Shown here in pieces: positions 1-5,594 of a stretch of DNA of 5,594 nt. Below the pieces are notes generated by a model. That model made no database searches. It saw nothing but the letters and a program-made list of their open reading frames with translations, and was not told the origin of the DNA. Position 1 is the first letter of the stretch. Every line of letters starts with the position of its first letter. This DNA comes from a virus. Taxonomy: Duplodnaviria; Heunggongvirae; Uroviricota; Caudoviricetes. Position numbers and translations under genes: made by a program. The stretch lies in the IMG/VR virus record IMGVR_UViG_2663762627_000005, positions 1-5,594 of that record, one strand, 5' to 3'.

Positions 1-441
1 GATTACGAAATTATGCCGCCTTTTCGCCAGTTGTCGCGCCGCACGGTGCTGCTCACACCAAAAGAATCTACCTGAACGATCAAGCGCACGGTTTTTTATC
101 ATCTCAGGCTGGTTTTTAATCCCCATCAGCTCCGGTGCTAGTGCAGCGGCCAGTTCTGCACCGTTCTGCTGCATAAAATCATGCAGTCGGTTACGGATGC
201 TGATGCGTTGCACCTCCTCATGTGAGCGGATATAGCGACCGGCGGCCTGATTAATCTCCCATTTTTTTATATCGATGAGCTCACGCAGCATCTGTAAGCA
301 GCGGGAACCCGTTGCATTGTCATCTAGCAATAATTCCTGATATTCCTGCATTGCGGCGGCCAGTTCGGTTTTACGGTTCAGCCACACGGTTTTGTTCGTC
401 TGACAGGCGTCACAGGCCTGCTGTAAGGTCAGAGTGGTCAC
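1..441 (-). CDS. psu: Psu-like polarity suppression / capsid decoration protein, 5' part only (147 codons; 3' end lies beyond the left edge)
   Basis: Reverse-strand frame open from GTG at 441-439 to position 1 with no stop. SD-like AGGAGAG sits 7 nt upstream (on the minus strand). Translation (VTTLTLQQACDACQTNKTVWLNRKTELAAAMQEYQELL...KWEINQAAGRYIRSHEEVQRISIRNRLHDFMQQNGAELAAALAPELMG) closely matches P4 Psu as I recall it. Third gene of the sid-delta-psu order. Not in the supplied ORF track because it is edge-truncated and GTG-initiated. Confidence 0.8.
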   Translation of the reverse strand, partial: MTTLTLQQACDACQTNKTVWLNRKTELAAAMQEYQELLLDDNATGSRCLQMLRELIDIKKWEINQAAGRYIRSHEEVQRISIRNRLHDFMQQNGAELAAALAPELMGIKNQPEMIKNRALDRSGRFFWCEQHRAARQLAKRRHNFVI

Positions 442-457
442 GGGTTGTCTCTCCTGA

Positions 458-703
458 TTAATGGCAGAACGGCGAGCTGTAGCAGCCTTTTACCCGACGG
501 GGTGCCACGGGGGCTGTCGGCACCGGCGCGGGTTTCTCATCGACGACCGGCGAACGTATCACTTCAAAGATGGACTCATGCGTTTTAAATGTCGCCGAGC
601 AGTGCACATTCTGGCACTGCAGGTAACTCTCTTTGACGCTGTCAGACATATAGCGGCTGGTGCGAACGTGTGCCGCCGTGCGGCAGAAAGGGCAGCGCAT
701 CAT
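458..703 (-). CDS. delta: Ogr/Delta-family zinc-finger late transcription activator (81 aa)
   Basis: ORF MMRCPFCRTAAHVRTSRYMSDSVKESYLQCQNVHCSATF... carries the Cys4 pattern C-x2-C-x22-C-x4-C and strong similarity to P2 Ogr (MFHCPLCQHAAHARTSRYI...QCQNVNCSATF). Its ATG overlaps the stop of the upstream gene (ATGA, translational coupling). Confidence 0.88.
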   Translation of the reverse strand: MMRCPFCRTAAHVRTSRYMSDSVKESYLQCQNVHCSATFKTHESIFEVIRSPVVDEKPAPVPTAPVAPRRVKGCYSSPFCH

Positions 704-1437
704 GACAATAACCCCCGAGCCTTCAGGTCAGCTTCACGTTCCTGCATTTTTTCCTGCCAGACTTTTCGCTGAACGGGAGTGGCCGCAACGTCATGCTCCA
801 TATGCGGCAGCGTGGAGGCCGACAGTCCTGTTTTAAACAGCACCGGTTCATCGGTCAGACGGATATCGCAGCCTTTCACCGCCTGCTCAAGTCGGTCTTT
901 CACCTGCTGCATAACGGCCTGTTCTGGCTGGATATAGCCCTGATGCCCGGTGGTATTGGCAAGCGGGTTATTAAGAACCAGTATGTTGAGTTTCATTGCC
1001 CTGACCAGCGCGCTACAGGTATCACGCAGGGCAACATCGAGCTCATGCTCTGCATACTGGCTGAGGACGCTGTAATGTGCCTGACGGTACGCTCTGGCCG
1101 TCCGGTCACAGACTCCCTTAAGGCTGTCCAGCTCAAAAGACAGAACCTCAGCCATATTGTCACATTCCTGCGCCAGTTCCCGCCGTGCCACGCGCGCCAG
1201 ATGGCGTTGTTTCAGCTCGTCGGTAACGACAGCACCACCGGCACGAAAGGCGGCGCGCCATGCGCCGGAATCATTGCCGTTTTCCTGCTCCAGTTCATTT
1301 TTTTGCGTTTGCACCTGGCTGATGGCCGTCGTGGTTTCATCCATACGGCTGGCATTGGCGAGATGCGCCGAGCGGGCAGTCTCAAGGCGTTCCATTGCAG
1401 GTTTAAGGTAGTCGGGAATAACAGCGGTCTGAGTCAT
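700..1437 (-). CDS. sid: Sid-like protein (capsid size determination / external scaffold), 245 aa; assignment by synteny and size
   Basis: First gene downstream of the Delta-type promoter box, followed by delta and psu as in P4. The ATG at 1437-1435 is preceded by GAGGAGA with a 6-nt spacer; the longer track ORF (to 1503) has no SD and would start inside the promoter. 245 aa is close to P4 Sid. Sequence identity to Sid not verified. Confidence 0.6.
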   Translation of the reverse strand: MTQTAVIPDYLKPAMERLETARSAHLANASRMDETTTAISQVQTQKNELEQENGNDSGAWRAAFRAGGAVVTDELKQRHLARVARRELAQECDNMAEVLSFELDSLKGVCDRTARAYRQAHYSVLSQYAEHELDVALRDTCSALVRAMKLNILVLNNPLANTTGHQGYIQPEQAVMQQVKDRLEQAVKGCDIRLTDEPVLFKTGLSASTLPHMEHDVAATPVQRKVWQEKMQEREADLKARGLLS

Positions 1438-1469
1438 GTCGGGTCTCCTCTTCGTTTCAATCTGAGGAG

Positions 1470-1528
1470 ATTCTGCCGCGCCAGACACAACAACACGATT
1501 CATTGGCGTTGTGGCAAAAATGACACAA
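1470..1528 (-). promoter_or_regulatory. Psid-like late promoter: TGT-N12-ACA dyad (1511-1528) plus candidate -10 CAGAAT (1475-1470, minus strand)
   Basis: Exact TGTggcaaaaatgacACA at 1511-1528. The dyad centre is about 55-57 bp upstream of the predicted start site and about 80 bp upstream of the sid ATG, the geometry of Ogr/Delta-activated P2/P4 late promoters. Confidence 0.6.
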
Positions 1529-1613
1529 ACAGACCTTAAAACCCGGCTGGCCAGAGAAAGGTCTCAGGAAACCCTTACTCACTGTTTGTTTTTTTACTAA
1601 TAACTATTCACTA

Positions 1614-1708
1614 CTGTTCACCTTAAGAAAAAAGATAAGTAATACAGTTAATTAAAGGGTGAACAGTTGAAGGTCTGACTGTTCACCGTCTGTTCACCAC
1701 TGTTCACC
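1614..1708. repeat. Cluster of five CTGTTCACC repeats (P4 type I iteron core TGTTCACC); crr-like alpha-binding region
   Basis: Direct copies at 1614-1622, 1679-1687, 1690-1698 and 1700-1708 (the last three phased at 11 and 10 bp), plus an inverted copy GGTGAACAG at 1658-1666. The octamer TGTTCACC is the alpha-protein binding iteron of P4 ori and crr. Confidence 0.7.
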
Positions 1709-1790
1709 CTTCTGTTTTTCTCTGCCGATACCTTTAGACTTTATTTCGATTAAAAATCAAAAATATATAACTAAAAGAAATAGAAATTGC

Positions 1791-1844
1791 TGCATTGTAA
1801 TGCAGTGATTTGCATCTGTTTGCCAGCGTTTGCCTTTGTTTGCC
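1791..1844 (+). promoter_or_regulatory. Candidate operator/PLL-region elements: perfect palindrome TGCATTGTAATGCA and three GTTTGCC direct repeats phased at exactly 10 bp
   Basis: Palindrome at 1791-1804. GTTTGCC at 1818-1824, 1828-1834 and 1838-1844. Lies 130-180 bp upstream of the vis/alpA start, with an AT-rich tract (1740-1790) just upstream. Confidence 0.4.
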
Positions 1845-1973
1845 ATAGCGAAAAGTCAATGTTTGTTTCCACGAAAATCTCACATGACCTGAGGAAAAAT
1901 ATAGACATAATAAGGAGCTACCCGAAGCCGGACGGACACGACCGGCACCGTATGGACTTTATGAGGTAGCCCG

Positions 1974-2240
1974 ATGCACACCGCTTTTTCTTCCCCGTCT
2001 TCTGCCCCTGCCGCGCCGCTGATGCCGGTCTCTGACGCCGTTCATGAGCGTTTTATTCGTCTGCCTGAAGTGATGCATTTATGCGGCCTGTCTCGTTCGA
2101 CCATTTATGACCTCATCAGCCGGGAAGCTTTCCCGAAGCAAATCTCCCTCGGCGGTAAAAACGTGGCGTGGGCGCAGTCTGAAATCACCGCATGGATGGC
2201 GGATCGCATTGCCGAACGTAACCGGGGTTATGACGCATGA
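1974..2240 (+). CDS. vis: AlpA/Vis-family small DNA-binding regulator (88 aa), MerR-like HTH
   Basis: ATG at 1974 with GAGG 7 nt upstream. The protein contains [50 protein letters not shown], characteristic of prophage AlpA/Vis/excisionase-like regulators. Same size (88 aa) and position as P4 vis (orf88) as I recall. Confidence 0.85.
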
Positions 2241-2788
2241 TGATGACCGTTCAGCAAACAGCCCCTTTTTCTGGCTTGCTTCTTTTCATCGTTTCCAGGT
2301 ATAGTTTTCCCGCTGCCGCAAAATCGGCAGCCGGGCGTAGGAACCCGAGTTACTTATTGGCGACACCAGACGCGCCATGCGTCTTTTTTTACGTCGTTGC
2401 TCAGGCACACCCATTTTCCGGGCTGTGGTGCTTATACCTTAGCCCCTGTCAGATAATGGTGGTCCGGGCGGGGCAGCCTTCGGGCTGGCCGGTTTCCAAT
2501 AAGGCCGGTATTCCTACCCCCGTTCGGGTCACCACCCATGAGCGTAGGAACTCCGGTGGTGGCAATTACCGCTACTTATTGGAGGTTGCCGCTATGGCTA
2601 CGACCCTCACCCTGCCACACCCGCAGTTTGTCTTTGTGTTTGCCGCCGTTCGTCGCGCAGACCGTAAACCCCGTATCTGTATGCTTCGCACCGTTGCCGG
2701 TGATGAACACGCTGCACGTCTTTCCCTCGTTCGCGATTATGTCCTCTCGTTCGCTGGCCGTCTGCCGGTTGCGGAGGTGTGCGCATGA
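2237..2788 (+). CDS. eta: Eta-like long ORF (183 aa) whose terminal part is kil; starts with three consecutive ATG codons and reads through seqA, the CI-like RNA and seqC
   Basis: About 119 codons stay open across a region that is clearly an RNA regulatory locus, in frame with kil. The start overlaps the vis stop (ATGA) and is followed by ATGATG. This matches the P4 description of eta as a nested ORF beginning upstream of PLE with three possible start codons. Whether it is translated is untested. Confidence 0.45.
2276..2305 (+). promoter_or_regulatory. Sigma70-type promoter, PLE-like: -35 TTGCTT (2276-2281), 18-bp spacer, -10 TATAGT (2300-2305)
   Basis: Good hexamers with correct spacing. 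Placed just upstream of seqA and the CI-like RNA and just inside the eta ORF, as expected for the constitutive early promoter of a P4-type left operon. Confidence 0.55.
2335..2361 (+). promoter_or_regulatory. seqA-like target of the immunity RNA (GTAGGAA ... CTTATTGG)
   Basis: GCGTAGGAACccgagttaCTTATTGG is complementary in two blocks to the seqB segment of the downstream RNA (CCAATAAG ... TTCCTAC at 2496-2517). Confidence 0.65.
2368..2390 (+). terminator. Intrinsic-terminator-like hairpin (AGACGC / gccat loop / GCGTCT) followed by a T7 tract
   Basis: 6-bp stem at 2368-2373 and 2379-2384 with a T run at 2384-2390, immediately downstream of seqA in the leader. Orientation-specific: there is no U-tract on the other strand. 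Confidence 0.4.
2455..2537 (+). ncRNA. cI: CI-like immunity RNA (about 80 nt) carrying seqB; boundaries approximate
   Basis: A terminal helix can form between GGUGGUCCGGGCGGGG (2458-2473) and CCCCCGUUCGGGUCACCACC (2517-2536). Internal hairpin CAGCC-UUCG-GGCUG (2474-2488). The seqB segment CCAATAAGgccggtaTTCCTAC (2496-2517) is complementary to both seqA and seqC. P4 CI RNA is a processed leader RNA of about 79 nt. Confidence 0.6.
2541..2585 (+). promoter_or_regulatory. seqC-like target of the immunity RNA, overlapping the kil Shine-Dalgarno
   Basis: AGCGTAGGAAC (2541-2551) and CTTATTGG (2575-2582) repeat the seqA blocks. The GGAGG SD of kil is at 2581-2585, so CI/seqC pairing would occlude the kil ribosome-binding site. 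Confidence 0.6.
2594..2788 (+). CDS. kil: Kil-like small protein (64 aa), first translated gene downstream of the PLE-like promoter
   Basis: ATG at 2594 with GGAGG 8 nt upstream. 64 codons ([64 protein letters not shown]). P4 kil is 65 aa at the same position. Function inferred from position only. Confidence 0.6.
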
Positions 2789-3012
2789 GACACACCACCA
2801 TTACTGCCCGTGACCTCGAATGCCTTGAACATATGCGCAACGTCGGTCAGCTCGTCAGCGAACTGATGCAGGTGCAGGACTGTGCCACTGTTCGCCGTGA
2901 CCCGGCGCAGCAGTTACAGCTCACCTCCGTGATTTACCTTATGACCGCCCAGCTCGACGGCATGGTCGAACGCTGCAATCAGCACTGGCTGACCGGGGAG
3001 GACAACGTATGA
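2785..3012 (+). CDS. Hypothetical small protein (75 aa from ATG 2785; the track's GTG 2779 start gives 77 aa)
   Basis: GGAGG at 2773-2777 is 7 nt upstream of ATG 2785. The ATG overlaps the kil stop (ATGA). No recognisable motif. Occupies the slot where P4 carries small left-operon genes such as eps. Confidence 0.6.
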
Positions 3013-3329
3013 AACAGCCATTACCGCCCGTATTACGCGCCGCGCTCTATCGCCGTGCAGTGGCCTGTGCCTGGCTGACCCTGTGCGAACGCCAGCACCG
3101 TTACCCGCGCCTCACCCTTGACGCGCTGGAAAGCGCCATTGCTGCCGAGCTGGAGGGCTTCTACCTGCGCCAGCATGGAGAGGAAAAAGGTCGCCAGATT
3201 GCCTGTGCACTGCTCGAAGATTTAATGGAAGCCGGACCACTGAAAGCTGCCCCGTCGCTGTCCTTCCTCGGGCTCGCGGTGATGGATGAACTTTGCGCCC
3301 GCCATATCACCGCACCGGTACTGCACTGA
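3009..3329 (+). CDS. Hypothetical protein (106 aa), translationally coupled to the upstream ORF
   Basis: GGGGAGG at 2995-3001 is 7 nt upstream of ATG 3009. The ATG overlaps the upstream stop (ATGA). The ORF ends 14 nt before the primase start. No recognisable motif. Confidence 0.65.
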
Positions 3330-3343
3330 GGGAGAAAATAACA

Positions 3344-5440
3344 ATGAAAATGAACGTAACGGAAACCGTAAAACAGGCGTGCGGTCACTGGCCGCGTATT
3401 CTCCCGGCGCTGGGTGTGAAGGTGATTAAAAACCGGCATCAGGCCTGTCCGGTGTGCGGCGGCTCTGACCGCTTTCGCTTTGACGATAAAGAGGGGCGCG
3501 GGACGTGGTACTGCAATCAGTGCGGCGCGGGTGACGGGCTTAAGCTGGTCGAAAAGGTGTTCGGTGTAAATCCGTCTGAGGCCGCCCGGAAGGTGAACGC
3601 CGTCACCGGTAATCTGTCGCCGGTTGCCCCGGAAGCGATTGCGGCCGCAGAAGCCGGAACCGATGCCGACCTCCAGGCGGCGGCCGCGCTGGCCGTCAGG
3701 CTCATGGAGAAAACCCGCCCGGCCACCGGCAACGCCTACCTCACCCGCAAGGGTTTCCCCGACCGGGAATGTCTGATGCTCACAGCCATACATAAAACCG
3801 GCGGCGTGACGTTCCGCGCCGGTGATGTGGTTGTCCCGCTGTATGACGATACCGGGGCGCTGGTTAACGTTCAGCTTATTAATGCTGATGGTCTCAAACG
3901 CACCCTGAAAGGCGGTCAGGTCAAAGGGGCATGTCATATCATCGAGGGGCAGAAACAGCCCGGAAAACGCCTGTGGATTGCGGAGGGTTATGCGACCGCG
4001 CTCACCGTGCATCAACTGACCGGCGAAACCGTCATGGTGGCGCTGTCCTCCGTGAACCTCCTTTCTCTGGCGAGCCTTGCCCGTCAGAAGTCCCCGGCCT
4101 GTCAGATTGTCCTCGCCGCCGACCGTGACCTTAACGGCGACGGCCAGAACAAAGCCGCAGCGGCCGCAGGAGCCTGCGAGGGCATTGTTGCCCTGCCACC
4201 GGTGTTCGGTGACTGGAATGATGCGTTTATAGAAAAAGGTGAGGAAGCCACGCGGAAAGCCATTCATAACGCCATCCGGCCACCGGCACAAAGTCCGTTC
4301 GACACCATGAGCGAGGCGGAATTTACCGCCATGAGCGCCAGCGACAAGGCGATGCGGGTGCATGAGCATTACGGCGAAGCGCTGGCTGTGGACGCGAACG
4401 GCCAGCTTCTGTCCCGCTATGAAAACGGCATCTGGAAAAATATCCCTGCCGCCACTTTTTCACGAAATGTTGCTGATTTATTCCGGCGCGTGCGTGCCCC
4501 GTTCTCGTCGGGGAGAATCACCTCAGTGGTGGAGACGCTGAAGCTGATTATTCCTCAGCAGGAGGCACCGGCGCGCCGTCTGATTGGTTTTCGCAACGGG
4601 GTACTTGATACCCAAAGCGGCCTGTTCAGCCCGCACAGTAAATCACACTGGCTGCGCACGCTGTGCGACGTGGATTTTACCCCGCCGGTGGAAGGGGAAA
4701 CGCTGGAGACCCACGCGCCAAACTTCTGGCGCTGGCTCGACCGTGCCGCCGGTGGCAGACCGGAAAAACGCGACGTGATACTTGCCGCGCTGTTTATGGT
4801 GCTGGCGAACCGCTACGACTGGCAGCTCTTTCTCGAAGTCACCGGTCCCGGCGGAAGCGGTAAAAGTATTCTCGCCGAAATCGCGACCCTGCTCGCCGGA
4901 GAGGATAACGCCACGTCAGCCGATATCGACACACTGGAAGACCCGCGCAAGCGCGCATCCCTGACTGGTTTCTCGCTAATCCGTCTGCCTGACCAGGAAA
5001 AATGGAGCGGTGACGGGGCAGGACTCAAAGCCATCACCGGCGGCGATGCGGTCTCAGTTGACCCGAAATACCAGAACCCGTACTCAACACATATTCCGGC
5101 GGTGATTCTGGCCGTGAACAATAACCCGATGCGCTTCACTGACCGCAGCGGCGGTGTGTCACGCCGCCGGGTGATTATTCATTTCCCGGAGCAGATTGCC
5201 CCGGAGGAACGCGACCCGCAGCTCAGGGATAAAATTGCGCGCGAGCTGGCCGTTATCGTGCGCCAGCTTATGCAGAAATTCAGCGACCCGATGGCAGCGC
5301 GCACTCTGCTCCAGTCGCAGCAGAACTCCGATGAAGCGCTCAGCATCAAGCGTGATGCTGACCCGACGTTTGATTTTTGTGGCTATCTGGAAATGCTGCC
5401 GCAGACCAACGGGATGTTGGTAATGGTGCCAACTTACTGA
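3344..5440 (+). CDS. alpha: P4 alpha-type primase-helicase, C-terminus apparently replaced by IS1-derived codons (native codons end near 5418)
   Basis: Start ATG 3344 (MKMNVTETV...) with GAGGGAG upstream; the track's earlier ATG 3293 lies inside the preceding gene. Zinc-ribbon CPVCGG...WYCNQCG, primase EGYATA motif, TOPRIM-like AADRDLNGDG, and Walker A GPGGSGKS (about 4844-4867). The last 7 codons and the stop (5420-5440) lie inside the IS1 terminal inverted repeat. 699 aa versus about 777 aa for P4 alpha. Confidence 0.88.
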   Translation: MKMNVTETVKQACGHWPRILPALGVKVIKNRHQACPVCGGSDRFRFDDKEGRGTWYCNQCGAGDGLKLVEKVFGVNPSEAARKVNAVTGNLSPVAPEAIAAAEAGTDADLQAAAALAVRLMEKTRPATGNAYLTRKGFPDRECLMLTAIHKTGGVTFRAGDVVVPLYDDTGALVNVQLINADGLKRTLKGGQVKGACHIIEGQKQPGKRLWIAEGYATALTVHQLTGETVMVALSSVNLLSLASLARQKSPACQIVLAADRDLNGDGQNKAAAAAGACEGIVALPPVFGDWNDAFIEKGEEATRKAIHNAIRPPAQSPFDTMSEAEFTAMSASDKAMRVHEHYGEALAVDANGQLLSRYENGIWKNIPAATFSRNVADLFRRVRAPFSSGRITSVVETLKLIIPQQEAPARRLIGFRNGVLDTQSGLFSPHSKSHWLRTLCDVDFTPPVEGETLETHAPNFWRWLDRAAGGRPEKRDVILAALFMVLANRYDWQLFLEVTGPGGSGKSILAEIATLLAGEDNATSADIDTLEDPRKRASLTGFSLIRLPDQEKWSGDGAGLKAITGGDAVSVDPKYQNPYSTHIPAVILAVNNNPMRFTDRSGGVSRRRVIIHFPEQIAPEERDPQLRDKIARELAVIVRQLMQKFSDPMAARTLLQSQQNSDEALSIKRDADPTFDFCGYLEMLPQTNGMLVMVPTY

Positions 5441-5594
5441 TTTAGTGTATCATGGTGTTTTTGAGGTGCTCCCGTGGCTTCCATCTCCATCAGTTGTCCC
5501 TCCTGCTCAGCTACTGAAGGCGTGGTGCGTAACGGTAAAAGTACTGCCGGACATCAGCGCTATCTCTGCTCTCACTGCCGTAAAACATGGCAAC
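5419..5594 (+). mobile_element. IS1 insertion sequence, left end (terminal inverted repeat GGTAATGGTGCCAACTTACTGAT) and start of insA; continues beyond the window
   Basis: 5419-5441 matches the IS1 terminal inverted repeat apart from a few variant positions, followed by the characteristic TTTAGTGTAT...GGTGTTTTTGAGGTGCTCC leader and insA. Confidence 0.9.
5474..5594 (+). CDS. insA: IS1 InsA (transposition repressor / N-terminal transposase part), 5' portion only
   Basis: GTG start at 5474. Translation (V/M)[39 protein letters not shown] matches the InsA N-terminus (zinc-finger CPSC...CSHC). ORF runs off the right edge. Confidence 0.9.

Follow-up and report, generated by a model that had tools for sequence, protein, structure and literature searches.

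About one in three Enterobacterales genomes harbours a phage satellite related to P4. These satellites bear defence hotspots, and almost all working knowledge of them derives from P4 itself. In the comparative survey of Moura de Sousa & Rocha 2021 (PMC8628076), the P4 cnr gene is described as controlling plasmid copy number, the family that includes it lies between an 'epsilon' marker and the primase-helicase gene alpha in 90% of P4-like elements, and a 75-amino-acid (aa) protein of unknown function without a P4 counterpart occurs in 61% of them. Here we consider a 5,594-nucleotide (nt) stretch of DNA (positions 1 to 5,594 of IMG/VR record IMGVR_UViG_2663762627_000005, hereafter the window), which from its gene content we assign to a P4-like phage satellite, and in particular two small open reading frames (ORFs) of 75 and 106 aa that lie between kil and alpha. 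We identify the 106-aa ORF (ORF106) by homology as the probable cnr, and find that the 75-aa ORF (ORF75) belongs to the uncharacterised family of the survey, that it is an almost constant neighbour of cnr across P4-like elements, and that P4 has lost it through an in-frame deletion.

Several lines of homology identify ORF106 as the orthologue of P4 ORF106, and hence in all likelihood as cnr, a negative regulator of satellite replication and copy number. It shares 91.5% identity with the P4 protein (UniProt YQ55_BPP4) over 106 of 106 aa, matches the Pfam family PF17345 (DUF5375) along its entire length (positions 1-106 of 106; 216.7 bits, cut-off 30), and finds a single matching place in P4 by tblastn, which is ORF106. 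Its position immediately before alpha is common to the window, P4 and related loci (14 nt separate the two genes both here and in P4), and its AlphaFold2 model is a four-helix domain with a predicted local distance difference test score (pLDDT) of 86.8 and a predicted template modelling score of 0.81. The settings of the two genes differ, in that an intact 75-aa ORF overlaps the start of cnr in the window where P4 has a 21-codon remnant, and in that the alpha of the window has lost its C-terminal ~85 residues because of the insertion sequence IS1. The 'epsilon' marker of the survey is PF10554, which is really the Ash/eta ORF, whereas true P4 epsilon belongs to PF25738; 'between epsilon and alpha' in the survey therefore means between eta/kil and alpha. 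P4 has three ORFs there (epsilon, orf151 and ORF106), and ORF106 alone has homologues in most related loci. Cnr is the most conserved small protein of the P4-like family, and is still labelled as of 'unknown function' in public databases (Pfam, RefSeq, UniProt). Ziegelin et al. 1997 (J Bacteriol) reportedly showed that Cnr has no DNA binding of its own and stimulates the binding of alpha to ori/crr, and that alpha-cr mutations, which change the C-terminal DNA-binding domain of alpha, allow its control to be escaped. An initial annotation of the window, made from its letters without database searches, had recognised neither of the two proteins; this holds for ORF75, which has no assigned function, but not for ORF106, which is clearly homologous to a characterised protein. 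The annotation had itself named such homology as counting against its view, although it had worded this for structural or housekeeping proteins, and Cnr regulates replication.

ORF75 matches phrog_10110, a family of unknown function, over positions 1-75 of 75 (E 1.3e-44). In size, in its site between the Ash/eta ORF and alpha beside cnr, and in its prevalence among P4-like elements it agrees with the 75-aa family of the survey, of which it is a member differing in nothing of kind. No match to ORF75 was obtained in Pfam, NCBIfam or PADLOC (whose defence models likewise give no match for cnr, kil or eta), nor by tblastn among 50,697 phage records including P4, and when 1.84 billion representatives were scanned exhaustively with a profile, only 27 proteins of the family came back (representatives at 50% identity), all of them small.

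We collected 78 loci from different species by means of a Cnr profile and mapped all of their left-operon genes. Intact ORF75 stands directly upstream of cnr in 71 of the 78 loci, with a 4-nt stop/start overlap in 68 of these 71 and with overlap or abutment in 70. The most divergent ORF75 found (locus L081, 29% identity) has the same neighbours and overlaps, and the position between the Ash/eta-kil ORF and cnr is retained both there and in locus L085. ORF75 is absent only from P4 itself (loci L028-L030 being P4 sequence in metagenome-assembled genomes, MAGs) and from locus L056, both of which are elements with epsilon and orf151; in locus L024 the copy has been disrupted by a rearrangement. 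Across 5426 complete Escherichia coli genomes, cnr is present in 1294, epsilon in 993, ORF75 of the window type in 85, and a divergent ORF75 subtype, missed by blastn, in a further 548.

Two observations on individual records may be added. In L085 (E. coli O157 AR-0428, NZ_CP044147.1) a divergent ORF75, ~46% identical to that of the window, lies unannotated at 5998-6201; its frame ends prematurely, 20 nt short of cnr, which a 1-nt indel that sets it apart from other O157 genomes would seem to explain, and the record, a 46.9-kb linear 'plasmid', looks like an unplaced chromosomal contig with a P4-like element. Loci L027-L030, from MAGs labelled Dysgonomonas, Clostridiales, Ferruginibacter and 'bacterium', are short contigs 99-100% identical to P4, and the occurrence of P4 contigs in MAGs of unrelated phyla is almost certainly due to contamination or mis-binning.

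ORF75 is thus a near-universal neighbour of cnr, yet it is missing from the model system P4. When the orf151-cnr interval of P4 is aligned with epsilon-bearing loci, an internal deletion of ~200 nt (about 65 codons) becomes apparent, and at 7366-7301 (complement) of P4 there is an unannotated, in-frame ORF of 21 codons, MPYQLMQPARNAVICHREKSK. This ORF keeps the Shine-Dalgarno (SD) sequence and start of ORF75, the SD of cnr (as AGGGAG) and the ATGA overlap with cnr, and from this alignment we identify it as what an in-frame deletion has left of ORF75, its coupling to cnr preserved. The junction of the P4-type deletion is contiguous in 910 of the 5426 complete E. coli genomes, and it therefore represents a natural and successful allele rather than a laboratory artefact. 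In L056 an independent deletion has placed cnr behind the SD of ORF75. It is because the gene is deleted in the model satellite P4 that ORF75 has never been studied.

The signals by which the two ORFs would be translated, and the genes on either side of them, are as follows.

2237-2788, plus strand: eta/kil 'Icd-like' ORF, 183 aa, with 71% identity over 108 aa to the P4 kil/eta frame
2594-2788, plus strand: kil, the 64-aa terminal part of the eta ORF, with GGAGG at 2581-2585; its stop overlaps the start of ORF75
2773-2777, plus strand: SD of ORF75, GGAGG, read from the sequence, 7 nt before the ATG
2785-3012, plus strand: ORF75 (ATG 2785-2787 to TGA 3010-3012), 75 aa, phrog_10110, predicted helical hairpin
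2995-3001, plus strand: SD of cnr, GGGGAGG, 7 nt before the ATG and embedded in the last codons of ORF75 (T-G-E)
3009-3329, plus strand: cnr (ATG 3009-3011 to TGA 3327-3329), 106 aa, P4 ORF106 orthologue, DUF5375
3344-5418, plus strand: alpha primase-helicase, with 83.5% identity to P4 alpha over 691 aa

The name kil, and the 65 codons assigned to it, follow Forti et al. 1999. ATGA at 2785-2788 joins the kil/eta stop to the start of ORF75, and ATGA at 3009-3012 joins the stop of ORF75 to the start of cnr; alpha follows with GGGAG at 3330-3334 before its ATG at 3344. No promoter- or terminator-like sites were found within 2785-3329. The window contains 60 ORFs of at least 30 aa, and since ORFs of such lengths often arise by chance in a sequence of 56% guanine plus cytosine (GC), length is no proof of a gene and conservation was used instead. 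Enterobacterales proteins form 304 clusters at 90% identity for ORF75 and 223 for ORF106, the median pairwise ratio of nonsynonymous to synonymous substitution rates (dN/dS) is 0.31 and 0.145 respectively, and an SD-like motif precedes cnr in 70 of 70 related loci and ORF75 in 65 of 70. These values identify ORF75 as a gene evolving under purifying selection. Consequently, coordinates, SD sequences and conservation confirm what the initial annotation had proposed, namely two real, translationally coupled ORFs with strong SD sequences and ATGA overlaps, and gene order confirms their left-operon position between kil and the alpha primase. Across cnr and alpha there is also a 402-aa antisense ORF on the minus strand (3161-4369), which we regard as a chance ORF of GC-rich sequence.

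ORF75 might act mainly in cis, as a relay that keeps ribosomes on the long left-operon messenger RNA, prevents Rho-dependent polarity and feeds the cnr start, while its peptide has little function. The SD of cnr falls within the last codons of ORF75, and the invariant codons E72 and G71 coincide with it; moreover, the P4 remnant retains SD, start, frame and ATGA overlap despite the loss of ~65 codons, and the separate deletion in L056 likewise leaves cnr served directly by an ORF75 SD. However, there are invariant residues far from the 3' end (L14, H16, N19, G21, L46, S48, L57 and C64), and length is held at 72-77 aa (85-86 aa with an N-terminal extension) over deep divergence. The distant invariant residues, together with the dN/dS of 0.31, therefore indicate that the amino-acid sequence of ORF75 is selected, in contradiction to a purely cis role, and we consider a mainly cis-acting ORF75 improbable.

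What lies upstream of ORF75 is more variable than what lies downstream. Most P4-like loci have no epsilon, and in nearly all of the epsilon-less loci the kil stop overlaps the start of ORF75 by 4 nt. Eight loci (L033, L041, L042, L043, L051, L059, L060 and L057) have instead the order kil, epsilon, orf151, ORF75, cnr, alpha; seven of these carry both epsilon and ORF75, and L057 carries orf151 and ORF75. In these eight, ORF75 has an N-terminal extension of 10-11 residues and its own SD after a spacer of 67-110 nt. Since ORF75 adjoins cnr with or without epsilon and orf151 upstream, it is best regarded as an ancestral core gene tied to cnr and not as an alternative occupant of the epsilon slot. 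The same comparison bears on the idea that the functional partner of ORF75 is kil and not cnr, with ORF75 modulating the Kil cell-division inhibitor, for instance, or serving as its antidote. The overlap of the two genes in epsilon-less loci would fit such a pairing, as would the correlation of their distance matrices (r 0.63), yet kil and ORF75 are 660-830 nt apart in the eight epsilon/orf151-bearing loci, and P4 keeps kil without ORF75, so that we regard a partnership with kil as very improbable.

A conserved inverted repeat, GTGCGTAT(N10)ATACGCAC, is present between orf151 and the start of ORF75 in all elements of the epsilon+orf151 type (at about 7412-7386, complement, in P4, and at about 3690-3720 in L041, L033, L059 and L060) but does not occur in the window. 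An RNA hairpin, a processing site and an operator are all conceivable roles for it.

The initial annotation had placed the two ORFs in the slot where P4 encodes small helper-interaction proteins such as epsilon, its helper derepression protein, which would make the 75-aa ORF a local stand-in for epsilon. ORF75 and epsilon are alike in being small and probably helical, and the genes of both follow kil in the one operon that is under immunity control. They differ in that epsilon directly follows kil and ORF75 directly precedes cnr, and in that no sequence or profile similarity links them. P4 epsilon hits PF25738 at 4.2e-50, while ORF75 gives no hit to this profile at E<0.1; the hhalign probability between ORF75 and epsilon is 0.5-2.9%, inside the range of shuffled controls, and a search of 5.8 billion proteins with the epsilon profile recovered only members of PF25738 and hence no member of the ORF75 family. 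We also considered ORF75 as a distant paralogue of epsilon, given a tempting hhalign alignment over the first helices (P 0.016), but rejected it, as reversed, unrelated-family and shuffled controls score equally high: of 100 block-shuffled epsilon profiles, 33 reach at least the best score, 17.4, and similar scores are obtained against alpA, sid and the reversed C-terminus of alpha. On these comparisons we judge ORF75 to be unrelated to epsilon. Moreover, because the two occur together in the eight loci listed above, ORF75 is no replacement for epsilon, and the proposal of a stand-in does not survive.

As the initial annotation proposed, ORF75 could be a helper- or host-directed effector. It would then be a small, immunity-controlled protein, an anti-repressor or an agent of interference, that serves epsilon-less satellites as epsilon serves P4 and becomes dispensable once epsilon and orf151 have been acquired. 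It directly follows kil/icd, to which it is translationally coupled, and lies under a C4-type antisense RNA, at the site where the immI region of P1 has ant and P4 has epsilon. The resemblance to immI of P1/P7 (C4 RNA - icd - ant) extends to an antisense RNA of the C4 family and a small Icd-like ORF followed by translationally coupled genes; the downstream gene here is, however, unrelated to Ant, and the analogy is one of position. The scarcity of epsilon among P4-like loci is consistent with such an effector, as is the distribution of losses, since ORF75 has been lost solely in epsilon+orf151 lineages (two independent deletions, in P4 and L056, among ~10 lineages) and in none of the ~63 epsilon-less loci, a contrast with a rough Fisher p of ~0.02 that is not corrected for phylogeny and leaves the L024 rearrangement apart. 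The rate at which ORF75 evolves also resembles that of the helper-interacting delta, psu and sid. Against this stand its co-occurrence with epsilon and orf151, the failure to match either epsilon or PADLOC, and a coupling to cnr that is more constant than that to kil. Furthermore, ORF75 forms a single narrow family whose motif does not vary between hosts, even though the P2-like helpers of these hosts have repressors unrelated to one another, where the slot of an anti-repressor would be expected to be diverse. What speaks positively for interference with helper or host is position and evolutionary rate, and an ORF75 directed at either remains a live rival, though one that we consider unlikely.

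The AlphaFold2 model of ORF75 is a helical hairpin (helices at 8-30 and 40-70; pLDDT 77), for which Foldseek returned generic hairpins and no fold link. In a broad alignment, helix 1 carries the motif DLxxLEHLRNxG and helix 2 the motif QLxSxIxLxTxQLDxVVxRCxxxW, whereas the loop and N-terminus are variable. Family members from hosts as different as Escherichia, Pantoea and Erwinia keep the motif, and its conservation across hosts argues for a conserved partner. Zinc binding, suggested by C13, H16, C33 and C64, was rejected, as divergent members of the family do not keep C13 and C33. Fusions of ORF75 to Cnr (P0190, P0216, P0012 and P0128) were likewise set aside as 'Rosetta stone' evidence; they are singleton products of frameshifts or short-repeat deletions (e.g. 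at a shared 'WLT' motif), artefacts of a pseudogene-like character and not working fusions.

The reading we favour places ORF75 with the replication genes. The segment would be the distal part of an immunity-controlled left operon, in a P4-like satellite integrated at the ssrA gene of E. coli. In the order kil, ORF75, cnr, alpha, ribosomes would pass from gene to gene through the ATGA overlaps, and the 3' end of ORF75 would also supply the ribosome-binding site of cnr. By analogy with the mechanism described for P4, Cnr would bind the C-terminal DNA-binding domain of alpha and raise the binding of alpha to ori/crr, and this higher binding would throttle initiation and set copy number. Made together with Cnr, ORF75 would be a small protein-binding accessory, a two-helix hairpin with a conserved polar motif, that acts on the Cnr/alpha replication-control step, e.g. 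by tuning inhibition by Cnr or by acting on alpha; it would be an ancestral core gene of the P4-like family, lost in the P4 lineage by an internal in-frame deletion. The coupling to cnr, invariant in both architectures, the conserved motif and the correlations between distance matrices suggest such a role. The distances of ORF75 correlate with those of the alpha N-terminus (r 0.66), the middle of alpha (0.50) and cnr (0.48), besides kil as given above, while those with sid, delta and psu are 0.14-0.34.

A number of points weigh against this reading. The correlations could be explained by physical linkage alone. ORF75 evolves about twice as fast as Cnr, kil and alpha, with a mean p-distance of 0.39 as opposed to 0.15-0.25, a rate that resembles that of delta, psu and sid (0.39-0.56). 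P4 manages both replication and copy-number control although it lacks ORF75, and the P4-type deletion is frequent enough among E. coli genomes (the 910 counted above) that ORF75 must be dispensable, at any rate in elements with epsilon and orf151. Nor does P4 Cnr show a faster divergence after the loss of ORF75, its value being 0.114 as compared with 0.110-0.112 in the three closest ORF75-bearing relatives (L033, L041 and L042) and 0.110-0.277 across all seven; the alpha N-terminus is slightly more diverged in P4, though not in the other lineage, in a relative-rate test of two lineages. Finally, the mechanism of Cnr is carried over by analogy from the literature on P4, and the equation of P4 cnr with ORF106 leans on the definition attributed to Terzano et al. 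1994 (J Bacteriol), together with the indirect statement of the survey.

Taken as a whole, Cnr with ORF75 as an accessory of replication control is the best explanation we can offer, and we place it only a little short of an even call; the narrower claim that ORF75 is an accessory of the Cnr/alpha replication-control cassette, with partner and role inferred, is more tentative, and we would sooner expect it to be wrong than right. A wider formulation is that ORF75 is either an ancestral, family-wide effector by which most epsilon-less satellites target some conserved protein of helper or host, or an unrecognised third component of alpha/Cnr initiation control, with P4 as the atypical member that lost the gene after gaining epsilon and orf151; this seems to us rather doubtful. 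The two genes noted in the initial annotation are thus real but largely explained already, one of them being Cnr and the other belonging to a family flagged as uncharacterised in the literature. What the present analysis adds is the co-occurrence of ORF75 with epsilon, the near-universal 4-nt coupling to cnr, the in-frame remnant in P4 and the finding of no fold or family link. Choosing between replication control and manipulation of helper or host for ORF75 would fill a real gap, as an incremental advance rather than a new kind of system.

The remaining features of the window are listed below.

458-703, minus strand: delta
700-1503, minus strand: sid
1974-2240: alpA/ORF88
5419-5594, plus strand: left end of IS1, with the InsA N-terminus from GTG 5474 (PF03811 Zn_ribbon_InsA, E 8.8e-22)

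Alpha carries the Pfam domains Zn_Ribbon_Prim, Toprim_3, D5_N and DUF5906, and is cut by IS1 at about residue 692 of 777. The C-terminal DNA-binding domain lost in this way is where Cnr-resistant alpha mutations are reported to map. Because IS1 removes this domain, the present satellite copy is probably replication-defective, though its cnr and ORF75 are intact.

The eta/kil ORF, which RefSeq names 'host cell division inhibitor Icd-like protein', overlies several RNAs detected with Rfam: isrK (2312-2389), c4-a1b1 targets (2299-2351) and a C4-type immunity RNA (2452-2539). Residues 22-131 of the eta ORF (window 2300-2630) match PF10554 'Phage_ASH' over this isrK/c4-a1b1/C4 stretch, and the family may largely mirror conservation of the RNAs.

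A chromosomal element of E. coli PSS-16 (NZ_AP027713), integrated beside ssrA, is 99.9% identical to window 2237-3400 and has an intact alpha, with homology stopping at 5418. Its genes are, in order, an integrase, three cargo genes, psu, an ogr/delta-like gene, a sid homologue, an AlpA-type regulator, an 'Icd-like' ORF, a hypothetical gene, DUF5375 and the primase, and the layout of the window agrees with it. The three cargo genes occupy the int-psu hotspot (4031-5943 of that locus, outside the window) and encode a 368-aa hypothetical protein, a STAS-like domain protein and a 166-aa hypothetical protein, which together are presumably a defence system.

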